Source: Candidatus Uhrbacteria bacterium
GTDB lineage: Bacteria > Patescibacteriota > Patescibacteriia > JACRJV01
NCBI GenBank assembly: GCA_016215325.1
Contig: JACRJV010000019.1
Location: 9,959-73,958 of the forward strand
Reading direction: 5' to 3'
DNA: 64,000 nt
The position numbers were made by a program, and so were the translations under genes. The notes under the pieces were generated by a model that saw only the letters and a list, made by a program, of their open reading frames with translations, was not told where the DNA came from and did no database searches. This document shows positions 277-62,882 of the stretch, in pieces. Position 1 is the stretch's first letter, and each line of letters begins with the position of its first letter.

Positions 277-1524
277 TCAATGTATTCTGTCAACACCCAA
301 TACTAAATTCGGATTGACATCGAGTTTCTTCCACGGCGTGAATTGTTTTTTGAGTGCATGGAAGTATCCGGCAATCGCGATCATGACGGCGTTGTCGGTG
401 CAGAACGAAGGTATTGGTAATTGGTAATTAGTAATTGGTAATTCGCGAGCAACAGCCGCCGCGAGTTGCTCACGAAGTTGTTTGTTGGCGGCCACGCCAC
501 CGGCGAGAATGACTGTTTTAATCTTGTATTCTTTTGCCGCGCGTATTGTTTTTGCCACCAGTACATCAACGACAGCTTTTTGGAAACTGGCGCAGATATC
601 CGCAACAACAACAGGAGTTAGCTTGTAGCTTTTAGCTTGTAGCGTCGTCACCCTACCAGCTAATTTCCTAATTTCCAATTCTTTTACCTTGTAGAGCACC
701 GCCGTCTTAATCCCGGAAAAACTAAAATCATAATCATTGCTCTTGATCATCGGGGCGCTGAAAGGGAACACGGTCGGGTCGCCACTTTCTGCAAGACGCG
801 AGACCACCGGCCCTCCCGGATACTCTAACCCCAAAATCTTTGCCACTTTATCAAACGCTTCTCCCACCGCATCATCGCGCGTGGCTCCGATGATTTTATA
901 ACCCAACGGTTTTTTCATGAGCACAAGCTCTGTGTGACCGCCCGAGACGACGAGGGCCAGGGCGGGATAGGGTATGGGGGTTAGGGTATGGGGGTTAGGG
1001 TCGGTTTTCACGCCTAAACCCTGGACCCTGAACCCTATACCCTTTCGCTGCAGCCAGGCTGCAGCGATGTGTCCTTCCATGTGGTTGACCGCCACCAACG
1101 GAATCTTCCATGCCCACGCGAGGGTCCGCGCTGTTTCGACGCCGACCATCAACGAGGTGATCAGCCCTGGGCCATAGGTGACTGCAATGGCATCGATCGG
1201 GGGTTTTGTATTTAGTATTTTGTATTTAGTATTTGTTTCGGATTTCGGATTTCGAATTTCGGATTTTCGCCCTGCTGAGACGAGCGCCTTCTCCACTACC
1301 GGAATAATCTTCTCTACATGCTCCCGCGCTGCCACCTCCGGCACCACCCCACCGGTCTTCCGGTGTGTCGCAATCTGCGAATGCACGACATTGGAAAGAA
1401 TTTTCACGTCAATATTCCCCGACCAAAGGCTCCGTCGAGACGGGGCCTGCGTGGAGGGGCTCGAAAATTCGAGTACCGCCGCAGCCGTCTCATCGCAACT
1501 GGTTTCAATCCCAAGAATTCTCAT
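277..1524 (-). CDS. tsaD: tRNA N6-adenosine threonylcarbamoyltransferase TsaD (Kae1/Gcp), with four in-frame repeat insertions
   Basis: MRILGIETSCDETAAAV..., GGVVPEVAAREH, HMEGH, VVSGGH, AFDKVAKILGLEYPGGP and FCTDNAVMIA motifs. The track ORF starts earlier (1593); the conserved start MRIL is at 1524. The protein is about 75 aa longer than typical TsaD because of four low-complexity insertions. Confidence 0.9.
   Translation of the reverse strand: MRILGIETSCDETAAAVLEFSSPSTQAPSRRSLWSGNIDVKILSNVVHSQIATHRKTGGVVPEVAAREHVEKIIPVVEKALVSAGRKSEIRNPKSETNTKYKILNTKPPIDAIAVTYGPGLITSLMVGVETARTLAWAWKIPLVAVNHMEGHIAAAWLQRKGIGFRVQGLGVKTDPNPHTLTPIPYPALALVVSGGHTELVLMKKPLGYKIIGATRDDAVGEAFDKVAKILGLEYPGGPVVSRLAESGDPTVFPFSAPMIKSNDYDFSFSGIKTAVLYKVKELEIRKLAGRVTTLQAKSYKLTPVVVADICASFQKAVVDVLVAKTIRAAKEYKIKTVILAGGVAANKQLREQLAAAVARELPITNYQLPIPSFCTDNAVMIAIAGYFHALKKQFTPWKKLDVNPNLVLGVDRIH
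410..447. repeat. Tandem repeat GGTAATT(A/G)GTAATTGG inside tsaD (encodes ...LPITNYQLPIP...)
   Basis: The string ggtattggtaattggtaattagtaattggtaattcg is visible; it is an in-frame insertion relative to the conserved TsaD C-terminal FCTDN region. Confidence 0.6.
618..690. repeat. Tandem repeat AGCTTGTAGC / TAATTTCC inside tsaD (encodes ...LQAKSYKLTPVV...)
   Basis: gttagcttgtagcttttagcttgtagcg followed by taatttcctaatttccaatt. The coding frame is maintained. Confidence 0.55.
964..1043. repeat. Palindromic repeat (GGGTATGGGGGTTAGGGT x2 ... CTAAACCCTGGACCCTGAACCCTATACCC) inside tsaD
   Basis: Two GT-rich direct copies are followed by their approximate reverse complement. It translates in frame as GIGFRVQGLGVKTDPNPHTLTPIPYP, inserted between the HMEGH and VVSGGH motifs. 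Confidence 0.65.
1203..1268. repeat. Tandem repeat GTATTTAGTATTT / TTCGGATTTCGG inside tsaD
   Basis: gttttgtatttagtattttgtatttagtatttgtttcggatttcggatttcgaatttcggatttt. It translates in frame as ...SEIRNPKSETNTKYKILNTKPP... between conserved TsaD segments. Confidence 0.65.
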
Positions 1525-1528
1525 ACCA

Positions 1529-2347
1529 TTACCGTAAAAGAACATCTTTCTTCCTTTTGTTCGTAAAATCAACAACTGTTTCCCGCTGCTCATCTCCCAT
1601 CATCTCCCACATCACCTCAAAGATTGACTTGAAAATGTCGACCATGGCCGGGACCGCCACGACCACGGCTAACGAACTCAGGTGCGGGCTCACGATGAGA
1701 ATTTGATCCGGATAAATATCAATCGTGCTTTTAAAAGTATACTTGGCGGGGAGGTATCGTACATCGCGCAATAGTTTAGGATCGGCCGGATTGTCCGTAC
1801 GCGAATCAGCGGTGAGGAGCAACCGTGTTTTAATGTTTGTCCGCCCGCGCTCCACGCGAAACCGCTTGAAAAATGCCGGATCAATATCTTCCCAGCCATG
1901 CAACGAACCAATAATGCAGTATTTTTTATTCTTGTACCGCATCAGAAGACTGGTATAGAACGCTTCTAATTCTTCTTTTGTTTCGATGAACCGTAACCCC
2001 AACTGCTGGTCTTGTTTCCTTCCCAACGACTCAAGCGTTGGGATAATATTAGTAAACAACTCTAATTTTTTCTCAAAATACTGCGCCAACCGCTGCGGCT
2101 TTTCGGCGTAGTAATAGCGCTTGTTCTTACGAAAATATACCGAAACAAAACCCTTGTCTGATAAGGTCTTGAGGATAGCGTAAATTGTCGTGCGCTTCAA
2201 ACCAGCCTCTTTGGCAACCGTGCTGGCAAGCGACCCACCGATTTTAAGTAATGCTAAATAAACACTCACTTCCGGCTCTGAAAGGCCGAGGTTTTTGAGG
2301 ATTGCAATGTTTTCCATAGTGTCTAAATTGTACAACACTTTATTCAT
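1529..2347 (-). CDS. TrmB-family HTH transcriptional regulator
   Basis: N-terminal ...LKNLGLSEPEVSVYLALLKIGGSLASTVAKEAGLKRTTIYAILKTLSDKGFV (TrmB-type wHTH). Start probably at the internal MENIAIL (2317). Confidence 0.7.
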   Translation of the reverse strand: MNKVLYNLDTMENIAILKNLGLSEPEVSVYLALLKIGGSLASTVAKEAGLKRTTIYAILKTLSDKGFVSVYFRKNKRYYYAEKPQRLAQYFEKKLELFTNIIPTLESLGRKQDQQLGLRFIETKEELEAFYTSLLMRYKNKKYCIIGSLHGWEDIDPAFFKRFRVERGRTNIKTRLLLTADSRTDNPADPKLLRDVRYLPAKYTFKSTIDIYPDQILIVSPHLSSLAVVVAVPAMVDIFKSIFEVMWEMMGDEQRETVVDFTNKRKKDVLLR

Positions 2348-4140: not shown

Positions 4141-4712
4141 AGCTGTTTATTGTCCGCCATGGCGAAACCGAAGAAAATCGCAACGGCATCCTCCAGGGCC
4201 AAGGGATGGGGACGCTTTCGGCGTTGGGTCTAGAACAAATCCGCAAACTCGCTGGGCGGTTTGCCCAGGAACGGTTCGATGCCATCTACAGTAGTGATAT
4301 TACCCGGGCGCGCAAAACAGCCGAAGAAATCGCAAAACATCATCCGAATACACCGCTCACGATCACACGGCAACTGCGCGAAGTGAACATCGGCGCATTC
4401 AGCGGCAAACACAAAGACAGTGTCGATTGGAATAACTTGCCTCCAGACTTTGAGCATGATCATCAACTCGTGGATCGAGCGTCACAATTTATCCAGTCGC
4501 TCATGCCTCAACACTTTGGGCAGAGTATATTGTGCGTTGCACATGGCCGGATCAATGCAGCGCTGTTATCGGTATTGCTCGAAAAACCGCATTCGTGGAT
4601 CGATGAAATCGAAAACCTTGGGAATACCTCGGTCAATGTACTCGAGCGCGAACATACCGGCGCCTGGAGGATGGATCTCTTTAATGATACTGGACATCTC
4701 AACGACCTGTGA
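4137..4712 (+). CDS. histidine phosphatase family protein (phosphoglycerate-mutase-like)
   Basis: LFIVRHGETEENRNGILQG (RHG catalytic motif) and SSDITRARKTAEEI. Confidence 0.8.
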   Translation: MKLFIVRHGETEENRNGILQGQGMGTLSALGLEQIRKLAGRFAQERFDAIYSSDITRARKTAEEIAKHHPNTPLTITRQLREVNIGAFSGKHKDSVDWNNLPPDFEHDHQLVDRASQFIQSLMPQHFGQSILCVAHGRINAALLSVLLEKPHSWIDEIENLGNTSVNVLEREHTGAWRMDLFNDTGHLNDL

Positions 4713-8594: not shown

Positions 8595-10634
8595 ATGCCG
8601 TTTACTCTCGTTCCACCCTATCCCCCTTCTGGTGATCAACCCCGTGCGATCCAACAGCTCACAACTGGGGTCCGCTCTGGCGCCCATGATCAAGTATTGT
8701 TGGGCGTAACCGGATCCGGCAAAACCTTCACGATCGCCAATGTGATTCAATCCGTTCAAAAGCCGACATTGGTCATCGCTCACAACAAAACGTTGGCCGC
8801 ACAACTCACGCAAGAGTTCCGTACGTTCTTCCCCAACAATGCGGTGGAATACTTTGTCTCGTATTATGACTATTACCAACCAGAGGCCTACCTCCCATCC
8901 ACGGATACCTACATAGAAAAAGAGACGCAAATCAATGAGGAGATTGATCGCCTCCGCCATGCGGCCACCACCGCCATAATGACCCGCACCGACGTGATTG
9001 TCGTGGCCACGGTCTCCTGTATCTACAGTCTCGGCTCCCCAAATGAATACAAAAAAATGCTGATTGGGCTCGTGGTCGGCCAGCCGACTGAACGCCAAGC
9101 ATTGTTAGAACAATTGATTACGCTGCATTACACCCGCAACGATATTCTCAAACGCGGCTGCTTCCGGGCCAAAGGGGAATTATTCGAACTCATGCTGCCA
9201 GACAAAGAACAGATCATCCGCGTTGACTTGAGTGGCGGCGTGGTGCGCTCGATCGAGGTGTTTGATGCCGTGAGCCGCGCACAGCGCGAAAGCGTCCAAC
9301 AGCTGCTCGTGTTCCCGGCCAAGCATTTTGTGGTCGCCGAAGGAGTCAAGGAGGCGGCACTCCAGGCCATCGAACAAGAACTCAACCAACGCCTGGCTAC
9401 TCTCGACAAAGAGGGTAAGTTGTTGGAAGCCGAACGCCTCAAACGCCGCACGCGCTATGATCTGGCTATGATCCGAGAGATCGGTTATTGTAGTGGAATT
9501 GAAAATTACTCGCGCTATTTGTCTGCTCGGCCGCCTGGCAGTCCTCCGTACACACTCGTGGATTATTTCCCCAAAGATTTTTTGATGGTGATCGATGAGT
9601 CCCACGTGACGGTCCCTCAAATCGGCGGCATGTATGCCGGGGATCGCAGCCGCAAACAAACATTGGTCGAGCACGGGTTCCGCCTGCCCTCGGCGCTGGA
9701 CAACCGACCGCTCCAATTTAGCGAATTCGAAGAGCGCATGCCGCAGACAATTTACACCAGTGCCACACCGGGGAAGTATGAGCTTGGCAAGACGAGTCCC
9801 GCCGCAGCAGGATCCCGCACGCTGCGGGATAAGTCAAGCTCCGCCGATTCTTCATCTCTTCATCTCTTCATCTCTTCATCTCCCCTCATCATCGAGCAAA
9901 TCGTCCGCCCCACTGGCCTTGTAGACCCCGAAATTGTTCTCAAGCCCGCAGACAACCAAATCCCGGATCTTGAGAAAGAAATAGGGAAAGAAATAGAGAA
10001 TAAATGCCGGGTACTGGTGACCACGCTCACGAAAAAAATGGCAGAGGACTTGAGTGAGTATCTCCATGATCGCGGATACAAAACAAAGTATCTGCACAGC
10101 GATGTGGATACGATGGACCGAATCCGGGTGTTGGAAGACCTGCGCCGCGGCACCATCGACATCTTGATTGGTGTCAACCTGTTGCGGGAAGGGCTCGATC
10201 TCCCGGAGGTTTCGCTGGTGGCCATCTTGGATGCCGACAAAGAAGGGTTCTTGCGCAGCGACACGTCACTCATCCAAACCATGGGCCGTGCCGCCCGCAA
10301 CATCCGCGGCCGGGTGATCCTCTACGCCAATACGGTGACCGGCTCCATGAAGCGCGCCATTACCGAGACCAGCCGCCGCCGCAAAAAACAAGTCGAGTAT
10401 AACCTCGAGCATGGCATCACTCCCAAGTCCATCGAAAAGGCCATCCAATCCATTGTGGATTACGAACTCAAGCCGGAACTGCCGAGTGAATTTGTGGAGA
10501 TCGAAAAGTTCGAGGATGTCCCGGGGCTGATCAAAATAAAAATGAAAGAAGCCGCGCAGAGATTGGAGTTCGAACGGGCGGCTTTGATCAGAGATGAAGT
10601 AGTCCAATTAAAAAAACTCATCAGCACCCGATGA
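8595..10634 (+). CDS. uvrB: excinuclease ABC subunit B (UvrB) carrying a 33-aa in-frame repeat insertion
   Basis: Walker A GVTGSGKTFT, VIDESHVT, beta-hairpin region, helicase motif VI and the C-terminal UvrB-C domain (EAAQRLEFERAALIRDE). Confidence 0.95.
   Translation: MPFTLVPPYPPSGDQPRAIQQLTTGVRSGAHDQVLLGVTGSGKTFTIANVIQSVQKPTLVIAHNKTLAAQLTQEFRTFFPNNAVEYFVSYYDYYQPEAYLPSTDTYIEKETQINEEIDRLRHAATTAIMTRTDVIVVATVSCIYSLGSPNEYKKMLIGLVVGQPTERQALLEQLITLHYTRNDILKRGCFRAKGELFELMLPDKEQIIRVDLSGGVVRSIEVFDAVSRAQRESVQQLLVFPAKHFVVAEGVKEAALQAIEQELNQRLATLDKEGKLLEAERLKRRTRYDLAMIREIGYCSGIENYSRYLSARPPGSPPYTLVDYFPKDFLMVIDESHVTVPQIGGMYAGDRSRKQTLVEHGFRLPSALDNRPLQFSEFEERMPQTIYTSATPGKYELGKTSPAAAGSRTLRDKSSSADSSSLHLFISSSPLIIEQIVRPTGLVDPEIVLKPADNQIPDLEKEIGKEIENKCRVLVTTLTKKMAEDLSEYLHDRGYKTKYLHSDVDTMDRIRVLEDLRRGTIDILIGVNLLREGLDLPEVSLVAILDADKEGFLRSDTSLIQTMGRAARNIRGRVILYANTVTGSMKRAITETSRRRKKQVEYNLEHGITPKSIEKAIQSIVDYELKPELPSEFVEIEKFEDVPGLIKIKMKEAAQRLEFERAALIRDEVVQLKKLISTR
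9795..9893. repeat. Repeat element inserted in frame in uvrB (GTCCCGCCGCAGCAGGATCCCGCACGCTGCGGGA hairpin plus (TTCATCTC)x4)
   Basis: Translates as SPAAAGSRTLRDKSSSADSSSLHLFISSSPLII between the conserved TSATPGKYELGKT and EQIVRPTGLVDP. The same GTCCCGCCGCAGCGGGATCCCGC word recurs at 18575-18610. Confidence 0.6.
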
Positions 10635-11513: not shown

Positions 11514-12680
11514 TTACTTTGAACCCAAAAATGTTTTGAGCGCCTGAAGGGCCGCTTCCAATTCTTCCTTTTCCGCTCCGAAGGAGAATCTCAGATATCC
11601 TTCTTGCCCAAAGGCTACTCCTGGAACTGTGGCGATGTTGCCCTCTTCCAAAAGTCTCAATGCGAACTTCATGGAGTCGGTCTCTTGGCTCCCCAGGGCC
11701 TTGAGCGAAACAAAACTGTAGAGCCCTGAAGGCGCCGACAGAATGCTTGCGCCAAACAATTTGTTAAAAATTTTGGTAAACACATCGCGGCGTTCACGCA
11801 TGGGGGCTCGCACGGAGTCGATCACGGCCCGTGCATTGTGCACCCCTGCCAATGCGGCCCACTGGCTTATACTGGAAGTGCCCGTGGTGCTTTGGCCCTG
11901 AATGGTGCTCAATCGCGATATCACCGGCTCGGGAGCCAACACAAACCCCACGCGCCAGCCGGTCATGGCAAAATGCTTGGAACAACTTTGGATCACCACA
12001 ACGTTCTCCTGGAATTCGGGGAATGACCCGCACGACACAAATTCATTGTTGTCGTACATGAGCCCGCTATACACTTCATCGGAGACGACCGTGATGTGTT
12101 TCGATGCGGCAAACTCAAGAATGGAGCGCAATTGCTTACGAGTATACAATGTGCCCGTCGGATTGCTCGCGTTGTTTAAGACCAATATTGTTGTTTTAGC
12201 AGTACTGACCCGTTCAATATCTTCACGACTCACGCGCCATCCATTTTCTTCTTTTGTCGAGGTCACCACAGGCACCCCGCCAAACATTTCTGTGATACCG
12301 GAATAGGATACCCAATAGGGTGCAATCATCACCACTTCATCGCCCGGGTCCAGTATGGCCTGGAACAAGGCGTAGAGCCCAAACTTCCCTCCACAGGTCA
12401 CAATACAGTTTTTTGAAGTATAGACGGTCTTGTACGTGGTGTTCATCCAATCACTAAATGCTTGACGTAATTCCGGGATCCCGGCAACCGGAGGGTAATG
12501 CGTTTTGCCCTCCCGCATGGCGCGCTCTGCCCCCTCAATGATACTGGGGTGGCAATCCACCATGGGCTCGCCGGCGCTCAAGTTAAACACGCGGATCCCG
12601 GCGGCTTTCTTTTGGAGGGCGAGTCCGTTCATTTTGATCGTCGCGGAAACAGACAGTTTGAGGGTGGAGGAGAGTTTCAT
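11514..12680 (-). CDS. class I/II PLP-dependent aminotransferase (aspartate/aromatic type), last gene of the aro operon
   Basis: LSAGEP...DCHP, NPTG, SCSKHFAMTGWRVG (PLP Lys region). Confidence 0.85.
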   Translation of the reverse strand: MKLSSTLKLSVSATIKMNGLALQKKAAGIRVFNLSAGEPMVDCHPSIIEGAERAMREGKTHYPPVAGIPELRQAFSDWMNTTYKTVYTSKNCIVTCGGKFGLYALFQAILDPGDEVVMIAPYWVSYSGITEMFGGVPVVTSTKEENGWRVSREDIERVSTAKTTILVLNNASNPTGTLYTRKQLRSILEFAASKHITVVSDEVYSGLMYDNNEFVSCGSFPEFQENVVVIQSCSKHFAMTGWRVGFVLAPEPVISRLSTIQGQSTTGTSSISQWAALAGVHNARAVIDSVRAPMRERRDVFTKIFNKLFGASILSAPSGLYSFVSLKALGSQETDSMKFALRLLEEGNIATVPGVAFGQEGYLRFSFGAEKEELEAALQALKTFLGSK

Positions 12681-12937
12681 AATTTTTGAATTCTTTTAGA
12701 CTCTTTGACAATTAAACGAAACACTTGTTCAACCCATCGTGGATCGAGATGAAGATGTAGAGAAAGCTTGCATCGATCCTCTCGCATCCGCAGTTCCCGT
12801 AAACGATCCGTTACTGCCAACCTCCCTTTCTTTTTTTCTTTGCCAATGGCCTCAGAGAACCGCAGTCGCTGTGCAAGAATTTTAATGATTGATCGATCTG
12901 TTGCGTCAATTTTTTGTCGGAGAGTTGTGATGTTCAT
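12677..12937 (-). CDS. chorismate mutase (AroQ class, monofunctional)
   Basis: 86 aa; LRQKIDATDRSIIKILAQRLRFSEAIGKEKK pattern. Overlaps neighbours by 4 nt. Confidence 0.7.
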   Translation of the reverse strand: MNITTLRQKIDATDRSIIKILAQRLRFSEAIGKEKKKGRLAVTDRLRELRMREDRCKLSLHLHLDPRWVEQVFRLIVKESKRIQKL

Positions 12938-13620
12938 AGAGTACGCTCAATGCGTTGAAGATTCTGTACGAACGTTTGCCGCATACGTTTACTATACGGG
13001 TTATAGTTCTGCAGGTCACGGAATAACTGTTGCGTGTCATGGTGAACCAAATCCGTCATCCGTAACAATGTCTCATAATCGGGGGTTGCAACCAACTGAG
13101 GGCGCAATCGGAGTGGCTCGAGCCCGCGACCGATAAAATGCACCAACGCTTGCGAACGCGCCATCTGTTGGTCATGCCGCTGCGCTGTGGAGAGAATACT
13201 GGTGAGTTGGAGTGTCTGGAGGATCTGCTCAAATCGTTTCTGCTGCGCCGAAGACGCTCGCAGATACGACACGACGATCTTTTTGCCCTTGATCCCGCTC
13301 TGCCGTACCGAGTCTGGACCGAATAATGGGTGGGTCGCAATCAAGGGTTGGGTGCGATGAAAAACGGTACGCATGACACGCGCCGGATACATCTTCACTG
13401 AACAGGCATCCACTACAATCGTGGATAGAGAAAGTAGTGGTGCTACCTTCTTGCAGCACTGCTCAAACGAAGAGATTGGAACGAGCAAAAAGAGGAGATC
13501 TGTATCGATGCGTTCTTTCCGGATTCTGGGGTCATACATTTTTACTACGTACCCCTTCCCTTTGAGGCTCTTGGCCCAGAGTCTCCCAAATCGACCGTGA
13601 CCGATGATGCCGATGTTCAT
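12934..13620 (-). CDS. tyrA: prephenate/arogenate dehydrogenase
   Basis: MNIGIIGHGRFGRLWAKSL (Rossmann GxGxxG) and a TyrA-like C-terminal region. Confidence 0.75.
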   Translation of the reverse strand: MNIGIIGHGRFGRLWAKSLKGKGYVVKMYDPRIRKERIDTDLLFLLVPISSFEQCCKKVAPLLSLSTIVVDACSVKMYPARVMRTVFHRTQPLIATHPLFGPDSVRQSGIKGKKIVVSYLRASSAQQKRFEQILQTLQLTSILSTAQRHDQQMARSQALVHFIGRGLEPLRLRPQLVATPDYETLLRMTDLVHHDTQQLFRDLQNYNPYSKRMRQTFVQNLQRIERTL

Positions 13621-13744
13621 AAAACTCGAAATCCGAATATCGAAATCCGAAAAAAATCTAAAATGTTTAAAATTTTTGATATTTGAATTTTACTATTGTC
13701 TCGAATTTCAAATTTCGTGCTTCGGATTTTTAATGCAGTCGACA
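13617..13744. repeat. Intercistronic palindromic repeat (CGAAATCCGAA ... TTCGGATTT family)
   Basis: cgaaatccgaatatcgaaatccgaa ... cgaatttcaaatttcgtgcttcggattttt. It is the reverse complement of the TTCGGATTTCGG word found inside tsaD. Confidence 0.6.
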
Positions 13745-14320
13745 TCATAATTTCTTCACCACGATAAACGTTGTTAGGTTGGGATGCTGATCCTGAATCC
13801 CTTTTTCCAAAACCTCGAGACCATAGAGTTGGGCAGATCGTGCCGGCGCAATAACAGCAGTTTGCGCATCCAATATCCCTGCCCCAAGATCGCGAGCCGC
13901 TTTGGCCGTATCGTCCCAATCTTTGAGCGGCACCCCTTCAAACGCTTGCTTGAGGTATCGTTCGCATTGCGAAAATGCCTGGGGGTGACTGGCAATCCGT
14001 TTAATCTGATCCCGTGTTGTGCCGGGTTTTACCAACAGACACTGTTGCACTTCAATCCAAATTTCATCCACCAGGGTAAACAAATGGTGTCCCATGGCTT
14101 CAAACGCAGTTTGCACCAATCCGCCACGCGAATTCACCACCGGAAAAATCCCAAGCTGAGCCTCGCCCTGTTCCACCGCGGTCAACACACCCTCCATATC
14201 AATCGCGTAGATCATGGAAGGCGCAAATCCTTCGCGCCCAGCATAGACAAGTCCTGCTTCTTCCGAGAAAGAACCGGCATCACCGGAAACAGCAAGTGTA
14301 ATCGTTTTGGTATTATTCAT
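13745..14320 (-). CDS. pheA: prephenate dehydratase (PDT domain only)
   Basis: ITLAVSGDAGSFSEEAG..., TRD..., ESRP-like region; no ACT domain. Confidence 0.8.
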   Translation of the reverse strand: MNNTKTITLAVSGDAGSFSEEAGLVYAGREGFAPSMIYAIDMEGVLTAVEQGEAQLGIFPVVNSRGGLVQTAFEAMGHHLFTLVDEIWIEVQQCLLVKPGTTRDQIKRIASHPQAFSQCERYLKQAFEGVPLKDWDDTAKAARDLGAGILDAQTAVIAPARSAQLYGLEVLEKGIQDQHPNLTTFIVVKKL

Positions 14321-14400
14321 AAGTCAATAATGATTCGCGGTATTCGGATAGTAATTCGCGGTATTCGCATTATGTTATTGGTTTTGTGCCTTATGTCGTA
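14321..14400. repeat. Intercistronic repeat (ATTCGCGGTATTCG x2 family)
   Basis: gattcgcggtattcggatagtaattcgcggtattcgcatta; related words occur at 34520-34550 and 58483-58500. Confidence 0.5.
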
Positions 14401-15460
14401 AATAATGATCCATCATCACGAGTGCTGCCATCGCATCGACAATGGGGACGGCACGTGGCAATACACATGGATCATGCCGCCCTGCTGCCTCCAACGTAAC
14501 CGATTCTCCACTGGTTGTCACGGTATTTTGTTTCTGACCAATCGTTGCGACGGGCTTAAACGCAACGCGAAAGTAAATCATCTCACCACTGGAAATCCCC
14601 CCGAGTGTCCCGCCCGCATTATTTGTTTTAGTACGGATGCTTCCTTTTTCAGCAGGAACGAACTCATCATTGTGTTGACTACCCTTAAGCCCCACACTCT
14701 CAAACCCCAACCCAATATCAAAGCCTTTGACGGCATTGATCGAGAGCATGGCCTTACCCAAATCCGCTGGGAGTTTATCAAATACCGGCTCCCCCAAGCC
14801 TGCCGGGACGTGGCGGATCACCCCACGGATAATCCCACCGATTGAGTCTTTTGCAGCGCGCACTTCTTCAATTTTATCAATCATCTGTTGCGCCACTTTC
14901 GAATCAGGACAACGGACCATACTGGAATCAATTCCAGAACGAGAAACAGTGTTCAAATCGACCGTTGTTTTAATGTCCCCCACCTGCTGCACAAAACTCA
15001 CAAATTCCATCCCGAGCTTCTCTCGCAAATATTTTTGAGCGATCGCTCCGACCGCTACCCGCGCCAATGTTTCTCGCGCCGATGCCCGCCCCGACCCTCT
15101 CCACTCCCGCAATCCATACTTTGTCACATAGGTGTAGTCCGCATGCGAAGGCCGCAGCACGTCCTTCATGGCCAGATAATCTTCGCTCTTCGCGTCCTCG
15201 TTATACGCCACCAACAATATGGGTGTGCCGGTGGTCAGCCCATCTGTAACACCCGAGAGAATATGGATCGTGTCTTTCTCGCTTCGGGGTGTGGTAATGG
15301 CGCTCTGCCCTGGCTTGCGACGATCTAATTCTTTTTGAATATCTTCTTGGGCAATCGCAAGGCCTGGAGGACAGCCATCGATAATCACGCCAATAGCGCC
15401 CCCGTGCGATTCGCCGGCCGTCGTAATCCGAAATAATTGTCCAAAGGAGTTACCGGGCAT
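14375..15460 (-). CDS. aroC: chorismate synthase
   Basis: MPGNSFGQLFRITTAGESHGGAIGVIIDGCPPGL... The track ORF has a spurious N-terminal extension read through the upstream repeat. Confidence 0.9.
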   Translation of the reverse strand: MPGNSFGQLFRITTAGESHGGAIGVIIDGCPPGLAIAQEDIQKELDRRKPGQSAITTPRSEKDTIHILSGVTDGLTTGTPILLVAYNEDAKSEDYLAMKDVLRPSHADYTYVTKYGLREWRGSGRASARETLARVAVGAIAQKYLREKLGMEFVSFVQQVGDIKTTVDLNTVSRSGIDSSMVRCPDSKVAQQMIDKIEEVRAAKDSIGGIIRGVIRHVPAGLGEPVFDKLPADLGKAMLSINAVKGFDIGLGFESVGLKGSQHNDEFVPAEKGSIRTKTNNAGGTLGGISSGEMIYFRVAFKPVATIGQKQNTVTTSGESVTLEAAGRHDPCVLPRAVPIVDAMAALVMMDHYLRHKAQNQ

Positions 15461-15477
15461 ACCACCGAGTAAATTAA

Positions 15478-15535
15478 GCAAGATAAGCGAGATAAGTAAA
15501 TTAAGCGAGACACGCAAGATAAGCTATTTTTACAA
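15478..15535. repeat. Intercistronic repeat (GTAAATTAAGC / AAGATAAGCGAGATAAG family)
   Basis: taaattaagcaagataagcgagataagtaaattaagcgagacacgcaagataagc; the same words flank the 4HB gene at 62400-62882. Confidence 0.55.
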
Positions 15536-16607
15536 TTGCATCATTCAACGGATGCGCGTACTGCCCATTGTTCACATATACTTTTCCAATTTTTTCTAAA
15601 AGGACATAGCGTGTCTGACCCGCGCGTACCTTCTTGTCATTCTTGGTGGCATTGATAATTTGCGTTGAAGAATATCGGCGCAGGACGGCAAATGGCAAGT
15701 TCCATGGCGCGAGTACCTCTTGAATTTTATCAAACTCTTTCTCTGGCAGCACGCCCAGTGTCTGCGCAATCTTCGCTTCGACAAGAACCCCAACCCCGAC
15801 AGCCAAACCGTGGTGGATGCGGTACCCGCTTACCTGCTCCAGAGCATGGCCAATGGTATGCCCGAAATTGAGCACAGCCCGCTGCCCTTGTTCGGTTTCA
15901 TCCCGCGCGATCACCCCAGCTTTGATCGTGACCGCGCGACGAATAAAATCAATCGCGTCCTGAAGTCGATGGGTTTTACGAAATCGTCCGACAATCTCCA
16001 AGGATGCCGGATCAGAAGTGATAAACATCTTAACCGCCTCCATCATTCCGGAGGTTATCTGCGGCTGCGACAGCGTCTGCAGATATTGCACATCAATAAT
16101 CACACGACTCGGCTGCCAAAATGCGCCGATTAAATTCTTTCCTTCTGGCGTATCAATCCCCGTTTTGCCGCCAATCGAACTGTCCACCATCGCCAGCAGC
16201 GTTGTGGGGACTTGAATATAGGGGATGCCCCGCAGGTAGGTGGCCGCCACAAATCCAGCGACATCACCGACCACTCCGCCGCCCAACGCCACAATCACCG
16301 TATCCCGTCCGCAGCGCTGGCCAAGCATCGCGCGCTCCAGCGCGGTTTTCGTTGTTTGATTTTTTGCGCCTTCGCCATGCGGCATGGAAAGTATGATGGT
16401 TTTGGAAACAAAACGCCGGATGCGTCGTGCCAATGAGCTGGCATACGTCCGTCGCAGATGCGTATCGGTAATAATCACGCACGCCACGGGATTGATAGCG
16501 CGGATCGCTCGATCCATCTCGGATACCAGAGATCGCCCGACGACAATATCGTACGAACGTGGTTGGAGTACCGGCAGATCCACATGAATTGTAGAGAGGA
16601 GAGGCAT
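15501..16607 (-). CDS. aroB: 3-dehydroquinate synthase
   Basis: ALGGGVVGDVAGFVAATYLRGIPYIQVPTTLLAMVDSSIGGKTGID and NFGHTIGHALE. Confidence 0.9.
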   Translation of the reverse strand: MPLLSTIHVDLPVLQPRSYDIVVGRSLVSEMDRAIRAINPVACVIITDTHLRRTYASSLARRIRRFVSKTIILSMPHGEGAKNQTTKTALERAMLGQRCGRDTVIVALGGGVVGDVAGFVAATYLRGIPYIQVPTTLLAMVDSSIGGKTGIDTPEGKNLIGAFWQPSRVIIDVQYLQTLSQPQITSGMMEAVKMFITSDPASLEIVGRFRKTHRLQDAIDFIRRAVTIKAGVIARDETEQGQRAVLNFGHTIGHALEQVSGYRIHHGLAVGVGVLVEAKIAQTLGVLPEKEFDKIQEVLAPWNLPFAVLRRYSSTQIINATKNDKKVRAGQTRYVLLEKIGKVYVNNGQYAHPLNDAIVKIAYLACLA

Positions 16608-16613
16608 AGGGTG

Positions 16614-17648
16614 CTAGGATCGCCCAAGTTCTATCAACGTCTCTTCTGTTTGCTCCCACGAAAGGCAGGGGTCGGTGATGGATAGCCCATTACGATTGAT
16701 GGTTTCCGATGTGCACCGCGCCACACTCTGTGAGCCGCCGGTCAAGAAACTCTCGATCATAAATCCTTTAACGTATTTTTTGAACTCCTTCTCGCGGTTC
16801 ATCAATTCCATTGTTTCACACACGACCGTCATTTGCCGGGCGTATTCTTTCTTCCCATTGATCTTGCAATTGTCGTGGCTGGCGTCGATGAGGATCGCTG
16901 GGTTTTTCACGTTCGCTTTCTCCAAGATTCCAACCGCCTTCGCGATATTTTCCTGGTCATAATTTGGTGCAGAGTTTCCGCCGCGTAATACCAAGTGGGC
17001 AAAGTCGTTCCCGCGCGTTTCTACCTGATACCCGTTAAACACAGTCGTGTGGCCATGTTGAGCAGCAATAATCCCATTCACCCCTATCTCAAGGTTCCCG
17101 CTGGTGGGATTCTTCATTCCTACCGCGCACTCTACTGCCGACGCAAAGATGCGGTGCTCTTGATCCTCGGTCGAACGAGCGCCAATGGCCACCCAACTTA
17201 ATAGCTCAATAAATCCCCGAGCATTATGCGTGAACACCGCCTCGTCGGCAATCGGCAACCCCATCTCAACCGCCCGCACCATGAGACTGCGGGAATACGC
17301 AATCCCCTTTTCAATGTCCGGAGGCAAAAAAGGATCCGGCTGATTCACTGGGCCTGTCCATCCCTTGGTTGTCCGCGGTTTTTGGATATACAACCGCAGC
17401 ACTACTTTCACACGATCTTGGATTTGATCCGAGACAGATTTGAGTCGCTTAGCATACTCAATCACGCTTTCGTAAGGCCATGCGGAACAAGGGCCGACCA
17501 CCACGAGCATGCGATGATCTGAACCCGAAAGGATCGCTTTTACTTCCTCGCGGTCACGGGCAATGCGAGCATGCCCCTCCAATGATAATGGGAAGGCGTT
17601 GATAATTTCTTCTGCGCTCGGTAATTTTTTTATCGTTGTAAGATTCAT
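16614..17648 (-). CDS. aroG: 3-deoxy-7-phosphoheptulonate (DAHP) synthase, class I-alpha
   Basis: MLVVVGPCSAW..., KPRTTKGWTGPVNQPDP, ...CKINGKKEY... Confidence 0.9.
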   Translation of the reverse strand: MNLTTIKKLPSAEEIINAFPLSLEGHARIARDREEVKAILSGSDHRMLVVVGPCSAWPYESVIEYAKRLKSVSDQIQDRVKVVLRLYIQKPRTTKGWTGPVNQPDPFLPPDIEKGIAYSRSLMVRAVEMGLPIADEAVFTHNARGFIELLSWVAIGARSTEDQEHRIFASAVECAVGMKNPTSGNLEIGVNGIIAAQHGHTTVFNGYQVETRGNDFAHLVLRGGNSAPNYDQENIAKAVGILEKANVKNPAILIDASHDNCKINGKKEYARQMTVVCETMELMNREKEFKKYVKGFMIESFLTGGSQSVARCTSETINRNGLSITDPCLSWEQTEETLIELGRS

Positions 17649-17700
17649 ACAAATAATGCGAATAACCATTCGTCATTCTGGCTTGGCCAGAATCCGATCT
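17649..17700. repeat. Intercistronic hairpin repeat (CGTCATTCTG...CAGAATCCG family)
   Basis: aatgcgaataaccattcgtcattctggcttggccagaatccgatc; related words at 18551-18565 and 61141-61170. Confidence 0.45.
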
Positions 17701-18539
17701 GATCCTGCCTGCCCCGCCTTGGCGGTGGGTCTCGGCCAAGATGACAACACCTCGCGCCACTCTTGTGGATCAACGCCGATACCAGACCACAATCGGATCT
17801 GTTCAACCCCTTGCGCGATAAACATTTCAATTCCGGATATTGTTTGCGCGCCTGCTAACCGCGCTTGCTTGAGCAATGCCGTCTCTAACGGGTTATACAC
17901 GCAGTCCATAACCTTCTGATACTGCTCAAAATGATATCCGGGCAGCGGGGAGGCGCTGCTATCAGGATGCATGCCAATGGGCGTGGTGTTTACAATAATG
18001 TCCAAGGGCTGTTTGTAAACATCTTCGATAGTTTTAAGTACAGTACCGCCAAATTGTTGTGCGAGGATTTGTGCCTTTTGCGGTGTGCGGTTCCAATAGT
18101 ACTGCGCGGCTTTCTTTTTGGAAAGAGTTACGGCAACCGCTCGTGCTGCCCCTCCGGCACCGAGGATCAGTGTATTCTTCCCTGCGATGTCGATCCCCCG
18201 CAGGGCATGCTCAACGCCAATGACGTCGGTATTATATCCCCGCAACATCGAATTCTCCGAAATCACCGTATTGACCGCACCGACCTCGCGCGCTGAATCA
18301 TCCAGTCCATCAAGGTATGGAATAATCGATTCCTTATGTGGGATGGTTACGGCCGTAAGGCCGATGCCAAGCGTGCGAATTGCCTGGACCAGCGCCGAAA
18401 CATCAGGGTGTGGGAATGCCAGCATGATTGCGTCGATTCCAGCCGAAGCGTAGCTTGTGGTATGCAGCAATGGACTCATGCTATGGGCAAGGGGGTAGCC
18501 AATAACCGCATTGAGTTTTGTTTTGGTAGTAATATTCAT
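17673..18539 (-). CDS. aroE: shikimate dehydrogenase
   Basis: VIGYPLAHSMSPLLH, GYNTDVIG, GAGGAARAV motifs. Confidence 0.85.
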   Translation of the reverse strand: MNITTKTKLNAVIGYPLAHSMSPLLHTTSYASAGIDAIMLAFPHPDVSALVQAIRTLGIGLTAVTIPHKESIIPYLDGLDDSAREVGAVNTVISENSMLRGYNTDVIGVEHALRGIDIAGKNTLILGAGGAARAVAVTLSKKKAAQYYWNRTPQKAQILAQQFGGTVLKTIEDVYKQPLDIIVNTTPIGMHPDSSASPLPGYHFEQYQKVMDCVYNPLETALLKQARLAGAQTISGIEMFIAQGVEQIRLWSGIGVDPQEWREVLSSWPRPTAKAGQAGSDRILAKPE

Positions 18540-18660
18540 AATTTGAGCATCGTCATTCTGAGGCTAAAACCGAAGTCCCGCCGCAGCGGGATCCCGCCCG
18601 AGGCGGGAAATCCTCAACTACAAGGTCCTGCGCAAAACTCAGGATGACACAACGGACTCG
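18540..18660. repeat. Intercistronic composite palindromic repeat (CGTCATTCTGAGG...CTCAGGATGACA with inner GTCCCGCCGCAGCGGGATCCCGCCCGAGGCGGGAA hairpins)
   Basis: Read directly from sequence; it shares the GTCCCGCCGCAGCGGGATCCCGC word with the uvrB insertion. Confidence 0.6.
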
Positions 18661-19633: not shown

Positions 19634-20934
19634 ACTAAGTTAATTCGTGCGCCCAAAGATTGCATCATCGATACAAAGTTTGGGAACGTTTTGTTAATGC
19701 CTTCGGCCGTGGTAATGATTGTACCCCCTTGGGCGCACAGTCCCGCGATACTCAATGCCATAATGGTTCGATGATCATGATAGCCGTGGAGTTGGGCCCC
19801 AGACAATGACGATTGCCGGATTGTGAGGCTATCAGGTTCTTCTGTAATGTCTGCCCCCATCTTGGCTAATTCTGTGCGCATCGAACGCAGTCGATCGGTT
19901 TCTTTTAGCCGCGCCTGTGCGACGTTCACTAAGTGCGTTGTGTCTTCTGCTTGTGTGGCAATCACCGCAAGGGTTGGGACTAAGTCGGGGATGTCGTTAC
20001 AGTCGATGGTCATGCTATTCAAACTCCGTCCACCCCGAACAATAATACCTTCTTGATTGACCGATATATCTGCGCCCATTTCTTGGAGGATGGAAATAAA
20101 GCGTTTGTCCCCCTGCGCATCATTCATATCGAGCCCATTGAGCACGACCTCTCCTCCGCGCAAAACCCCGGCGGCAATCAAATACGATGCAGAGGAAAAA
20201 TCCCCAGGAATACTTTTTTCAAATGAACGGTAGCGTTGTCCGCCGGAAATGTGGAAGACATCGCGACCACCTTGCGATTGCCACTGATAACGGATGGCTT
20301 GTTCATCCAGCCATCGCGTGGTCATTGCCACATACGGGCGCTCATGGAGGTTCTCCACCGTAATGACAGAATCCTCCGGAGCACAGGGCAAGCTCAACAG
20401 CAGCGCCGAACAAAATTGCGAAGTAATGCCATCGACCCTCGCCGATCCGCCCTTCAGTGGTCCCTCACAGAAAAACGGCCAACCATGATGATCCGGCGCG
20501 GCTGTGACGCGCATCCCAAGGGTGCCAAGAGCATCCACGAGTGGCGTGATTGGACGCTGCCGCATTTGAGGCCCGCAATCGAACTGAATCGGATCCAGCC
20601 CGGTACGCAACCCCAGCATTGGCAGAACAAACCGGGTGGTAATACCAGAGTCACCGGTGAATACCGTTTTGGAAGCCGGACGCAGTGGTAATCCATTGCT
20701 TTCAACCTCTATATCGATGCGATGATTGGACTGCGCGTAAACCTTCACCGTTGCGCCAAGATCGCGGCAGACCCCGACGGCCTGATCGGTATCATCCGAG
20801 GCGAGCGCGTTCAAAAGAGCGCTGGTCCCGCTGGCCATGGTTGCCAACAGCAAAGCGCGCACCGTATGCGATTTTGAACTCGGCGACGTCACAGTGCCAG
20901 AGATAGTCTCGGTTTTTCGAACTTGTATTTCCAT
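19630..20934 (-). CDS. aroA: 3-phosphoshikimate 1-carboxyvinyltransferase (EPSP synthase)
   Basis: GTVTSPSSKSHTVRALLLA, LGAT..., DHRTIMALSIAGL motifs. Start at MEIQ; the track ORF starts earlier. Confidence 0.9.
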   Translation of the reverse strand: MEIQVRKTETISGTVTSPSSKSHTVRALLLATMASGTSALLNALASDDTDQAVGVCRDLGATVKVYAQSNHRIDIEVESNGLPLRPASKTVFTGDSGITTRFVLPMLGLRTGLDPIQFDCGPQMRQRPITPLVDALGTLGMRVTAAPDHHGWPFFCEGPLKGGSARVDGITSQFCSALLLSLPCAPEDSVITVENLHERPYVAMTTRWLDEQAIRYQWQSQGGRDVFHISGGQRYRSFEKSIPGDFSSASYLIAAGVLRGGEVVLNGLDMNDAQGDKRFISILQEMGADISVNQEGIIVRGGRSLNSMTIDCNDIPDLVPTLAVIATQAEDTTHLVNVAQARLKETDRLRSMRTELAKMGADITEEPDSLTIRQSSLSGAQLHGYHDHRTIMALSIAGLCAQGGTIITTAEGINKTFPNFVSMMQSLGARINLV

Positions 20935-21184
20935 ACAATGAGTTCTTCGTATCTCGTTGTAAAAAAGAAAAAACCTCTGGCCGAGGTTCTTGTTGCATTT
21001 CATCCTTTTATCGATTTTGGGTTTACACAATGCCAACAATGTCCTCGGAGGTTGAGGGGGTAAAAATGAACCAAAAAGAATACTGTTTGCATTGCATTAT
21101 CATATGGGTAAACAATAGCGCATTGACGATAGTATGTCAATATGCGCTGGCGTTTTTGGGTGATGTATAGTAGAATTACCCCTT

Positions 21185-32962: not shown

Positions 32963-33083
32963 AGGAAATTGGTTACTGGAAATTGGAGAATAGTAATGGA
33001 ACATGGAAATTAGTGTTTGAATACGTTTCCAATCTCCATACACCAATATCTATTACCATTTTCTATTTTCTAGCAACCAGTTT
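32963..33083. repeat. Intercistronic palindromic repeat (GGAAATTGG / TAATGG words and complement)
   Basis: ggaaattggttactggaaattggagaatagtaatggaacatggaaattag ... tttccaatctccatacaccaatatctattaccattttc. Confidence 0.5.
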
Positions 33084-35454
<2,371 letters not shown>

Positions 35455-36974: not shown

Positions 36975-37053
36975 AACGATAGAATTTAGAGTCCAGAATT
37001 TAGAATCTAGATTTTTGAACGGTCCCGTTCCTAACTTCTAGATTCGAGATTCT
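36975..37053. repeat. Intercistronic palindromic repeat (AGAATTTAGAATCTAGA ... TTCTAGATTCGAGATTCT)
   Basis: Visible inverted repeat between atpA and atpH. Confidence 0.5.
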
Positions 37054-37449: not shown

Positions 37450-37576
37450 ACCAGTGTAGTAGAACTTCGATTATTTTCTTAACTAAGGCTAGAAAGTGGA
37501 CTTTCCTCAGTGATCACCTTAAAGTAGTAACTTCTTTATTTTCAGTTTTACTATCGAAGTTTCACTACCGGGCATA

Positions 37577-38092: not shown

Positions 38093-38144
38093 TTAGGGTA
38101 TAGCGTTTAGTTCTAAACGCTGACCGCTAAACCCTAGACCCTTT
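38093..38144. repeat. Intercistronic palindromic repeat (TTAGGGTATAGCGTTTAG ... CTAAACCCTAGACCC)
   Basis: Shares GGGTAT/CTAAACCC words with the tsaD 964-1043 insertion. Confidence 0.5.
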
Positions 38145-39143: not shown

Positions 39144-39245
39144 ATTAACGGGAATTACGAATCATGAATAATGAATCATGGATTTTTTGTATCGTGCCCT
39201 GATTCCTTATTCCCAATTCCTGATTCCTGCGACATTTCCTTCGTA
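39144..39245. repeat. Repeat (GAATCATGAATAATGAATCATGG ... TGATTCCTTATTCCCAATTCCTGATTCC) overlapping the atpZ 3' end
   Basis: Tandem/inverted low-complexity words are visible; the atpZ-like C-terminus reads through part of it. Confidence 0.45.
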
Positions 39246-43648: not shown

Positions 43649-46758
<3,110 letters not shown>

Positions 46759-49254: not shown

Positions 49255-49343
49255 AAAACTAGTATATGGTATGAGGTATAGGGTATAAAGTATACGCCGA
49301 AATCATTAGGAAACGTCGCGCGGTATACCTTATACTTAATACC
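49255..49343. repeat. Intercistronic palindromic repeat (GTATAGGGTATAAAGTATAC ... GTATACCTTATACTTAATACCTTATACC)
   Basis: Inverted repeat of GGTAT/ATACC-rich words between trxB and the glutaredoxin-like gene. Confidence 0.5.
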
Positions 49344-56427: not shown

Positions 56428-56434
56428 ATTATCA

Positions 56435-58380: not shown

Positions 58381-58482
58381 AGTTGCTGCAATATCCGCAG
58401 ACTGGTGGCGGTCGCCCCTCTTTCCTATCCTACGTTCAATTTTGCCGAGTGTCAAAATACGCTCCAATTTGCTCGGAGCGTA

Positions 58483-62399: not shown

Positions 62400-62459
62400 A
62401 CCTTATTACGAGCAAGATAAGCGAGATAAGCAAGACAAGTAAATTAAGCACGACATGCT
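62400..62459. repeat. Left inverted repeat flanking the 4HB gene (AAGATAAGCGAGATAAGCAAGACAAGTAAATTAAGC)
   Basis: Its reverse complement is found at 62836-62882. Confidence 0.6.
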
Positions 62460-62834
62460 ATGGGAAACATTCATTCATTCCGCGACCTTTTAGTCTGGCA
62501 AAAAGCACACCAGTTGGTGCTGGAAATATATCGTCTTACCAAGAAATTCCCTTCGAACGAAATGTTTGGCTTAGTCTCTCAGATCCGTAGGGCCACAGTC
62601 TCCGTTGCTTCCAACATCGTAGAAGGCTTTAACCGCTCCAGTGTTCAAGACAGTCTGCATTTCTACACCATGGCCCATGCGTCACTCGAGGAAGTAAAAT
62701 ATCAGCTGCTCGTCGCCCGTGACTTGCAGTACATTACTCAACAAGAATACAATCATACACTTTGTTTAGGAGAAGAAGTGAGTAAATTATTGCGATCCTG
62801 GATCAATAGCCAGAAAGAGAATACGAAGGCGTAA
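62460..62834 (+). CDS. four-helix-bundle protein (23S rRNA intervening-sequence protein / Avd family)
   Basis: FRDLLVWQKAHQLVLEIYRLTKKFP...EMFGLVSQIRRATVSVASNIVEGF...HFYTMAHASLEEVKYQLLVARDL is the classic family pattern. Confidence 0.85.
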   Translation: MGNIHSFRDLLVWQKAHQLVLEIYRLTKKFPSNEMFGLVSQIRRATVSVASNIVEGFNRSSVQDSLHFYTMAHASLEEVKYQLLVARDLQYITQQEYNHTLCLGEEVSKLLRSWINSQKENTKA

Positions 62835-62835
62835 C

Positions 62836-62882
62836 GGCTTAATTTACTTATCTTGCTTATCTCGCTTAATTTACTTCGTATG
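62836..62882. repeat. Right inverted repeat flanking the 4HB gene (GCTTAATTTACTTATCTTGCTTATCTCGCTTAATTTAC)
   Basis: Near-perfect reverse complement of 62405-62452. Confidence 0.6.

Follow-up and report, generated by a model that had tools for sequence, protein, structure and literature searches.

The 64-kb window analysed here (64,000 nt of contig JACRJV010000019.1) comes from Candidatus Uhrbacteria, a lineage of the candidate phyla radiation (CPR), and holds two operons whose gene junctions carry inserts of repetitive sequence. Both operons lie on the minus strand, and their gene identities were checked with Pfam. The aro operon (21039-11514) reads aroA-aroK-aroQ-aroE-aroG-aroB-aroC-pheA-tyrA-CM (chorismate mutase)-aminotransferase, and the ATP synthase operon (39448-32510) reads atpZ-B-E-F-H-A-G-D-C. 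Non-coding inserts bearing repeats occupy 11 of the 18 junctions, 5 of 10 in the aro operon and 6 of 8 in the atp operon (Table 1). A first-pass annotation of the window, made from the sequence alone, had listed ten junctions with palindromic repeats; each of the ten carries such an insert, and the list lacked only the atpF/atpH element. Its statement that nearly every junction is occupied corresponds to five of six junctions in the aro segment 13617-18660, against 5 of 10 in the whole aro operon and 6 of 8 in the atp operon. The junctions with 4-nt ATGA overlaps that it had described as free of repeats (aroA/K, aroK/Q and tyrA/CM) are indeed so. ATGA overlaps are used by many gene pairs in the window.

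Structure and families of the junction elements

Folds were computed on the RNA sense strand, with z scores taken against 200 dinucleotide shuffles. Nine of the 11 elements form a single long imperfect hairpin that fills the spacer (z -1.6 to -4.8), and none of the 200 shuffles of the atpD/atpC spacer was equally stable. The nine spacers of at least 40 nt in the two operons had a mean z of -2.47, against -0.28 for 120 random 100-nt coding segments (Mann-Whitney p = 6e-4; separate shuffle set), while all 24 co-directional window spacers of at least 40 nt, which include some ordinary T-tract terminators, averaged -2.2 (p = 1e-5). The in silico check of hairpin stability that the first-pass annotation had proposed gave nine hairpins, and the description as palindromic fits these nine but not aroB/aroC and aroC/pheA, which consist of direct repeats. 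The units of these two junctions nevertheless belong to families with palindromic members elsewhere in the window (62400-62880 and 34485-34545, respectively), that of aroC/pheA recurring in the arms of the atpG/D palindrome. Comparison of sense with antisense stability and of G-U pairs over 26 elements revealed no bias (-0.5 kcal/mol on average, with values below zero for 16 of the 26; p = 0.32), and Rfam at gathering thresholds reported only rRNA and tRNA, so that the junction elements were matched by no known RNA family.

Table 1. Repeat-bearing elements of the window, compact junctions and atp spacer lengths (TRF, Tandem Repeats Finder)
Feature	Position	Strand	Length	Fold (kcal/mol)	z	Composition and context
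pheA/tyrA spacer	13621..13744	-	124 nt	-27.9	-2.3	AT-rich hairpin, arms of TTCGGAT/CGAAATC-type heptamers (TRF period 7); 3' foot touches tyrA ATG
aroC/pheA spacer	14321..14374	-	54 nt		-1.7	two direct 21-nt copies (GCGAATACCGCGAAT...), repeat family D7; no stable hairpin
aroB/aroC spacer	15461..15535	-	40-75 nt		+0.85	tandem 9-nt array (GCTTATCTT/GCTTAATTT...), solo arm of IVP-cassette repeat; no hairpin
aroE/aroG element	17671..17760	-	~88 nt		-1.6	CGTC-tagged REP-like pair, GC-rich; plus strand 17671-17700: CGTC ATTCTGGC TTG GCCAGAAT CCG
aroQ/aroE element	18540..18650	-	99-nt spacer	-43.8	-2.0	GC-rich compound hairpin GTCATCCTGAG...CTCAGAATGACG, two inner TCCCGC..GCGGGA hairpins; aroQ stop within 5' foot
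atpD/atpC hairpin	32963..33083	-	121 nt	-38.3	-4.8	whole spacer; stop UAG and start AUG in basal helix
atpG/atpD hairpin	34461..34560	-	100 nt		-3.3	arms of GCGAATA(C)T octamers
atpH/atpA hairpin	36975..37053	-	79 nt		-2.2	arms of TAGAATC-type heptamers (TRF period 7/14)
atpF/atpH hairpin	37450..37576	-	127 nt	-35.3	-4.0	16-bp outer stem GTAGTGAAACTTCGAT/ATCGAAGTTCTACTAC, inverted pair I19; stop and start codons at helix base
atpE/atpF hairpin	38093..38144	-	52 nt	-20.6	-3.3	TAGGGTTTAGCG...CGCTATACCCTAAA
atpZ/atpB hairpin	39144..39235	-	~92 nt	-24.6	-1.85	GGAATNA/TGATTCN heptamer arms (TRF period 7, twice); overlaps atpZ 3' end
glutaredoxin/thioredoxin-reductase junction	49255..49343	-			-3.9	outside both operons; like-type hairpin, GGTATAA/TATACCT heptamer arms (TRF, Pfam)
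IVP cassette	62400..62880	+				23S_rRNA_IVP/bAvd gene (PF05635) at 62460-62834, Pfam 2.1e-37, in stem loop
tsaD	277..1593	-				in-frame arrays 413-443, 619-680, 961-1045 (complete hairpin), 1201-1268 (TRF)
uvrB in-frame insertion	9786..9898	+	~31 aa			aroQ/aroE GC-rich core plus 8-nt array; repeat families D2, D8
aroA/K, aroK/Q, tyrA/CM, CM/aminotransferase			4-nt overlaps			ATGA; ATG at 19100 (aroK/Q)
aroG/B			6 nt			compact junction
atpA/G, atpB/E			5 nt, 15 nt			compact junctions
atp spacers, window			B/E 15, E/F 52, F/H 127, H/A 79, A/G 5, G/D 100, D/C 121 nt
atp spacers, L081			B/E 105, E/F 12, F/H 103, H/A 67, A/G 32, G/D 5, D/C 136 nt
atp spacers, L086			B/E 148, E/F 67, F/H 2, H/A 11, A/G 6, G/D 91 nt			D/C is an IVP gene

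The junction elements belong to several sequence families, not to the single set of repeats first described. The eleven have no common consensus, and some are linked by partial matches of 15-43 nt only. AT-rich hairpins with inverted arms of tandem 7-9-nt units make up most of the atp elements, the pheA/tyrA element and the glutaredoxin/thioredoxin-reductase element; the unit differs at each junction, the heptamers being TAGAATC, GGAATNA, GCGAATA, TTCGGAT, GGGTTAG/GGGTATG and GGTATAA (TRF). Period-7 arrays account for 14 of 55 TRF rows, with many different units that mostly form inverted pairs. A second kind, GC-rich CGTC-tagged REP-like units, includes or is related to the aroE/aroG and aroQ/aroE elements, which both end in GTCAT...ATGAC, and a further CGTC unit lies on the minus strand at 61175-61145 (CGTC ATTCTGG TCTTAT CCAGAAT CCG). 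The nonamer array of aroB/aroC is a third kind and is nearly identical to an arm of a cassette with an IVP gene.

Several elements have a stop or start codon in or beside the base of the helix, and those of atpD/C and atpF/H have both. As the first-pass annotation had noticed, reading through the repeats produces spurious extensions of open reading frames (ORFs). These are real at the C terminus of aroE (about 25 aa, through the aroE/aroG element), of atpZ (about 18 aa, the ORF running through the 5' arm and loop) and of aroB, whose final nine codons (9 aa) and stop are provided by the 9-nt array, and at the N terminus of the longest ORFs of aroC, atpD and atpC. At atpF, the start is probably the in-frame GTG 38074 (VEL(L/I)QT, compare the relatives L081 and L086) rather than ATG 38092, which would add 18 nt to the atpE/F spacer.

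The best promoter-like sites are strong, single ones and lie upstream of aroA (21140-21112) and atpZ (39485-39458). The junction hairpins have no T-tracts, except for one small inner hairpin in aroQ/E, whereas the canonical terminators of the window do, and a terminator reading of the hairpins was rejected for this reason. Because single promoter-like sites precede the operons and T-tracts are absent, the elements are probably co-transcribed with the genes. No Shine-Dalgarno signal was detected: GGAG, GAGG or AGGA stands upstream of 6 of 62 starts, no excess over the chance rate of 10.7%.

Dispersed copies and intervening-sequence cassettes

Further comparison within the window and with related genomes (identified below) revealed copies of the junction sequences at unrelated loci, which marks them as dispersed families. 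The CGTC unit of aroE/aroG has copies of 22-27 nt with 96-100% identity at unrelated loci in L087 (twice), L089, L090 and L086. The atpH/A element matches the atpG/D element of L086, at a different junction in another genome, with 87.5% identity over 40 nt. The atpG/D element itself matches 58482-58504, 14354-14376 and a site in L090. Within the window, the aroQ/aroE core shares 89-96% identity with 9795-9829 in uvrB, the pheA/tyrA element matches an array inside tsaD (1243-1266) at 92% over 24 nt, and the aroB/aroC array matches the right arm of the IVP cassette (62837-62875) at 95% over 39 nt.

The first-pass annotation had placed the repeats exactly in intercistronic spacers. The elements of both operons do lie in spacers, but their units also occur within coding sequence. 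In an alignment with 15 homologues, the positions of the tsaD arrays coincide with variable insertion sites at which relatives carry different inserts, and TsaD ranges from 333 to 485 aa in Uhrbacteria; the array at 413-443 substitutes native TsaD sequence with the length unchanged. In uvrB, alignment to the solved structures of UvrB is lost over query residues 398-428, where the structure chain continues from 401 to 404. Arrays also lie within the open ORFs of uvrA (21898-21976) and atpG (34823-34865), apparently in frame as judged from the ORFs. The four genes that host such arrays are essential ones. Compared with E. coli, the 23S rRNA has a 183-nt insertion (43959-44141, near position 292) and a 58-nt insertion (46220-46277, near position 2405), both ORF-less, and the latter is a perfect 26-bp hairpin (z -6.8).

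The IVP cassette joins the same architecture to a gene. Its arms (62400-62459 and 62835-62880) are inverted 9-mer arrays that are 97% complementary over 32 nt and pair into a stem roughly 45 bp long (-51 kcal/mol folded alone), and the cassette lies directly upstream of a TrmB-family gene that starts near 62881. Two CPR-like genomes have comparable cassettes inside their atp operons: in L086 an IVP gene (12432-12806) sits exactly at atpD/atpC between inverted arms of 14-mers, and in L100 one (4509-4883) sits exactly at atpA/atpG between arms of TGAGTTA/AGATGTA heptamers. In all three, short tandem arrays in inverted orientation make up the stem, and the ORF occupies its loop. L086 also carries a diversity-generating retroelement (bAvd and an RVT_1 reverse transcriptase; 19693-20936) about 7 kb from its atp operon.

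Among the closest known counterparts are those 23S intervening sequences of Coxiella and Leptospira that contain an S23p/IVP ORF (PMC4990558), which likewise have a stem of inverted flanks, tandem heptamers and possibly a PF05635 gene in the loop; in Coxiella, the intervening sequence has an S23p ORF and, in its 5' region, tandem heptamers (GACAGAT x3), and RNase III excision starts from the first repeat (PMC4990558). Tandem short-unit arms as in S23p elements are found as 9-mers in the window, 14-mers in L086 and 7-mers in L100. Intervening sequences are distributed sporadically and are regarded as selfish, and the distribution here is sporadic too. In contrast to them, the present elements occupy coding regions and the cistron junctions of mRNA operons and not 23S helices 9, 25 or 45, and most copies are ORF-less. 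The architecture common to the gene-less heptamer hairpins and the IVP cassettes, together with the near-identical solo arm at aroB/aroC, suggests a relationship of parent and derivative. A more far-reaching idea, which we put forward tentatively and consider on balance doubtful, is that the small heptamer-array hairpins are gene-less derivatives of S23p/IVP cassettes, of one kind with the classical 23S rRNA intervening sequences, and that in this CPR lineage the family spread from rRNA into mRNA junctions and coding regions, with the Avd-like IVP protein acting in spread or maintenance and RNase III excision making insertions nearly silent. If true, intervening sequences would gain a life cycle resembling that of MITEs (transposable elements of the miniature inverted-repeat type) and their parents, and a role would be assigned to the very large, unexplained PF05635 family.

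Near-identical assemblies from different samples are 100% identical across the elements, with no copy-number variation of the arrays, so hypervariability of the arrays over short periods is not seen. The same agreement bears on whether the hairpins could be chimeric joins or mis-assemblies in a metagenome-assembled genome (MAG). One contig, L088, does end in a palindrome, its positions 1-101 being the reverse complement of 4111-4211 in L087. However, elements of the same kind, ordered between intact genes, recur in independent ENA, JGI, NCBI and Logan assemblies, overlapping assemblies agree at 100% and ORFs remain open across the in-frame copies; an assembly or binning artefact is accordingly most improbable. 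The 101-nt palindrome that ends L088 is read through in L087; such elements break short-read assemblies.

Turnover of the elements between related genomes

Relatives of the atp operon (L081, AtpA 95% identical; L083, 91%; L086, 78%) and of the aro operon (L087/L088, AroG 77%; L089/L090, 76%; L091, 74%) were retrieved via their proteins. Coding sequence is alignable up to the stop and start codons, and the spacers between are either 0-15 nt, often ATGA, or 50-150 nt of unrelated filling. Which atp junctions are filled differs from genome to genome (Table 1), and wherever a junction is filled in more than one genome (F/H, H/A, G/D, D/C and aroB/C) the elements are mutually unrelated. At atpD/C, L081 and L083 have unrelated CGTC-type dimers; at atpG/D, L083 and L086 have unrelated heptamer hairpins; at atpF/H, L081 has an unrelated CGTC-type element; and at atpE/F, L086 has an unrelated hairpin of TAGGTTC arrays. 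An ACGAATT-heptamer hairpin lies at atpZ/B in L081.

The aro operon is tighter in the relatives. L091 has the same operon with all junctions between -4 and +4 nt (aroB/C 2 nt), L087 has elements only at aroA/K and aroB/C, and L089/L090 only at aroB/C and tyrA/CM, the aroB/C elements of L087 and L089 being unrelated GC-rich hairpins. The aroQ/E junction is an ATGA overlap in all three aro relatives, and aroE/G and pheA/tyrA are overlaps (ATGA-type at pheA/tyrA) or gaps of at most 4 nt; consistently, AroE ends in EWR(D/A)V.. in the relatives, with junctions of 0-4 nt. The aroC/pheA junction is an ATGA overlap in L087, measures 30 nt in L090 and is interrupted by a DUF2000 gene in L091. The tight junctions of the relatives imply that the window elements at these places are lineage-specific insertions into tightly coupled junctions. 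The pheA/tyrA insert is flanked on both sides by TTATGA (13612-13626 and 13739-13750), and the pair matches the expected duplication of an ancestral ...AAATTATGAAC... overlap; among the junctions it is the sole clear candidate for a target-site duplication. Taken together, the sequence alignments demonstrate insertion into junctions that were ancestrally tight, often with an ATGA overlap, and fast turnover among close relatives.

Wider scans gave some background to these comparisons. A metagenome scan with AtpA, saturated on conserved peptides, returned only relatives at 58-71% identity. Because atp spacers of at least 50 nt are common in other bacteria (a crude background with approximate start-codon picks), spacer length by itself is no anomaly. 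A contig scan with AroB returned relatives of at most 52% identity, with shared aro order and short spacers in MAGs labelled Peregrinibacteria and Gammaproteobacteria. The order of the 10-11-gene aro super-operon recurs in L015, L017, L020, L023, L027 and L045 (labelled Peregrinibacteria, Peribacteria, Gracilibacteria and Gammaproteobacteria/Legionellales), and the AroC of the window is about 70% identical to that of the gamma-labelled MAGs; the entire operon may have been transferred horizontally, or the bins may carry wrong labels.

The first-pass annotation had likened the repeats to REP/BIME elements that modulate mRNA stability and differential expression, and had named, as evidence that would tell against this, relatives with the same operon but neither spacer elements nor a difference in expression, or a lack of stable hairpins. 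The first half of the evidence from relatives was found: the aro operon of L091 lacks the elements, and the relatives with 91-95% identical AtpA fill other junctions with unrelated sequences. Both observations argue against a conserved role in differential expression, and a conserved regulatory role of the REP/BIME type is unsupported, since occupancy and sequences differ between close relatives. A reading in which the hairpins are selected intercistronic regulators in the E. coli REP/BIME manner, serving as 3' stem-loops or RNase III/E sites that set cistron half-lives and translation, draws on the strong whole-spacer hairpins that extend exactly from stop to start codons, on the start codon lying in or beside the 3' foot at four of nine hairpins, and on the missing Shine-Dalgarno sites, which mean that RNA structure near starts should matter. 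It is opposed by the lack of conservation just described and by the missing sense-strand bias, which together argue against a selected RNA role, and by the presence of the units in coding regions; we regard such regulators as unlikely.

Origin, possible effects on mRNA and relation to known repeats

The reading we prefer, with a probability of roughly 0.65, is that several families of small dispersed repeats, non-coding and able to form hairpins, colonised this Uhrbacteria lineage, that copies of them make up the junction sequences, and that these copies are tolerated insertions with fast turnover whose effects on expression are a by-product. In such a model, the elements would insert or be generated widely and would persist where harm is small, namely at cistron junctions, in permissive in-frame protein loops and in rRNA; cistron junctions would be hospitable because they are among the few non-coding sites of a compact genome.

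Several observations weigh against this preferred reading. Among the approximately 60 ORFs of the window, Pfam detected no transposase, RAYT or RNase III gene, and pairs of filled and empty junctions revealed no consistent target-site duplication, TTATGA at pheA/tyrA standing alone. Each of the four genomes examined has a filled atpD/atpC junction, and in none is atpE without an adjoining element, which also speaks for selected regulators and leaves room for selection at atpD/atpC and next to atpE. A hairpin in tsaD that is common to the window and L173 retains pairing at three of four changed pairs, a small sample that hints that the hairpin itself is maintained. In addition, co-transcription and cutting by RNase III are both steps that we infer. 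Finally, the distinct unit of each AT-rich hairpin would be just as compatible with hairpins generated locally, through slippage and template switching.

This last point belongs to an account in which the elements are immobile and arise in place, slippage building the tandem arrays and template switching (snap-back) copying the inverted arm, so that their likeness reflects a shared mutational bias. The solo direct arrays at aroB/C and aroC/pheA would fit such an origin, as would the tsaD array that replaces native sequence at constant length and the stop codons of atpG and atpD that form part of a palindrome; heptamers are moreover reported to be the commonest bacterial repeat unit and have been ascribed to slippage (PMC4679880). 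However, matches of 24-43 nt at 87-100% identity connect unrelated loci and genomes, IVP genes are carried within such arms at three different sites, and near-identical assemblies have zero copy-number variation where active slippage should vary. We regard origin in place as improbable.

If dispersed repeats of the preferred kind are transcribed with the operons, they would fold into long double-stranded RNA stems with imperfect pairing. Stems of 16-45 imperfect bp would probably be cut by RNase III, to judge from rRNA intervening sequences and the Correia elements of Neisseria; Correia elements in mRNAs are cut by this enzyme, and ERIC changes mRNA decay (PMC10969869). Cutting would divide the polycistronic mRNA at cistron borders and would alter access to the downstream start codon in an organism without Shine-Dalgarno sites, where the ancestral state would have been reliance on ATGA coupling. 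Incidental effects on mRNA are likely, and the expression effect of an element would be a by-product of insertion rather than a conserved design. One may also speculate that a hairpin which holds stop and start codons spatially close explains why such insertions are tolerated.

Among known repeats, only the CGTC units show the defining features of an established family, whereas E. coli-type REP/BIME, MIRU and STRR fail on theirs. In CGTC-tagged REPs, the CGTC tag is followed by a stem of 8-9 bp that starts with AT, a 4-5-nt loop and a tail resembling CCA (PMC3733652); they include Rickettsia RPE-4/-6 and Neisseria dRS3, and Di Nocera et al. (2013, PMC3733652) also found such units within genes, many of them for repair. 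The aroE/aroG unit and that at 61145-61175 similarly have the tag, a stem of 7-8 bp with AT at its start, a short loop and a tail of CC(G), and the units are paired and dispersed across loci and genomes. What differs is the host, a CPR lineage, and most of the junction elements are of other types. The first-pass comparison with E. coli REP/BIME is apt as to spacer location, hairpins, probable co-transcription and the two CGTC REP-like elements, but not as to a common sequence or a GTAG tag. These elements and the REPINs of Pseudomonas are likewise extragenic, often intercistronic palindromes whose co-transcribed hairpins are able to stabilise upstream mRNA. In contrast to REP/BIME, a shared 20-40-nt consensus is missing here, GTAG starts only the atpF/H stem, and most elements are 50-125-nt AT-rich hairpins of tandem 7-9-mers with a unit of their own. 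Among the approximately 60 ORFs of this 64-kb part of the genome, no Pfam match to RAYT (IS200/IS605-like), the gene associated with REPs, occurs.

The Rickettsia palindromic elements (RPEs; PMC10969869) also insert at permissive sites of housekeeping genes that are unrelated to one another, keeping the frame, and between genes. Compared by description, they differ in forming about ten families with conserved peptides, whereas the units here are far more varied, and of sequence features only the CGTC tag is shared (PMC3733652). The cyanobacterial STRR and the TAACTGA heptamers of Beggiatoaceae resemble the present elements in that short arrays of tandem heptamers lie directly upstream of start codons, with sites inside ribosomal-protein operons and suspected horizontal spread (PMC4679880). 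Those, however, are direct arrays of one dominant heptamer, while here inverted pairs of many units form hairpins. Correia, Yersinia ERIC and mycobacterial MIRU are likewise small repeats within transcription units but have a defined consensus and terminal inverted repeats. MIRUs reportedly (Supply et al., 1997) lie in operon junctions and contain small ORFs whose ends overlap with the stop and start codons on either side. Their structure, tandem 46-100-bp units with overlapping ORFs, was not found in these spacers, which are single hairpins or 7-21-nt arrays. Of the features of MITEs, inverted termini are present, and a duplication is seen at pheA/tyrA alone. TIGR arrays and CRISPR were dropped as candidates, as units at regular spacing and associated genes are both absent.

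The literature that we searched contains no account of repeats of this sort from Uhrbacteria or Patescibacteria. Since CPR genomes are small and compact, a repeat load of about 3% of the window (a rough tally) and the filling of most junctions in two core operons are unexpected. If the preferred reading is true, annotation of CPR genomes would contain false N- and C-terminal extensions and inflated protein lengths, as in TsaD with its 333-485 aa, and filled and empty junctions would constitute a natural experiment on the disruption of ATGA coupling in the absence of Shine-Dalgarno sites. The architectural link to S23p-type elements would further suggest a wider class of hairpin elements in any transcribed region, with mobility and PF05635 function open to testing.

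Elsewhere in the window, a defence or conflict cluster comprises a TOTE-type AEP primase-helicase (53847-55436), Fic (55456-56454), RmuC (58940-60160) and a toxin of the AbiEii type (60179-60853). In E. coli, RmuC has been associated with keeping inversions at short inverted repeats in check, and RmuC may be relevant in a palindrome-rich genome. TrmB-family regulator genes are unusually many (27014-27769, 42499-43245 and 62881-63689), and one adjoins the atp operon in each relative (L081, L083, L086 and L173).

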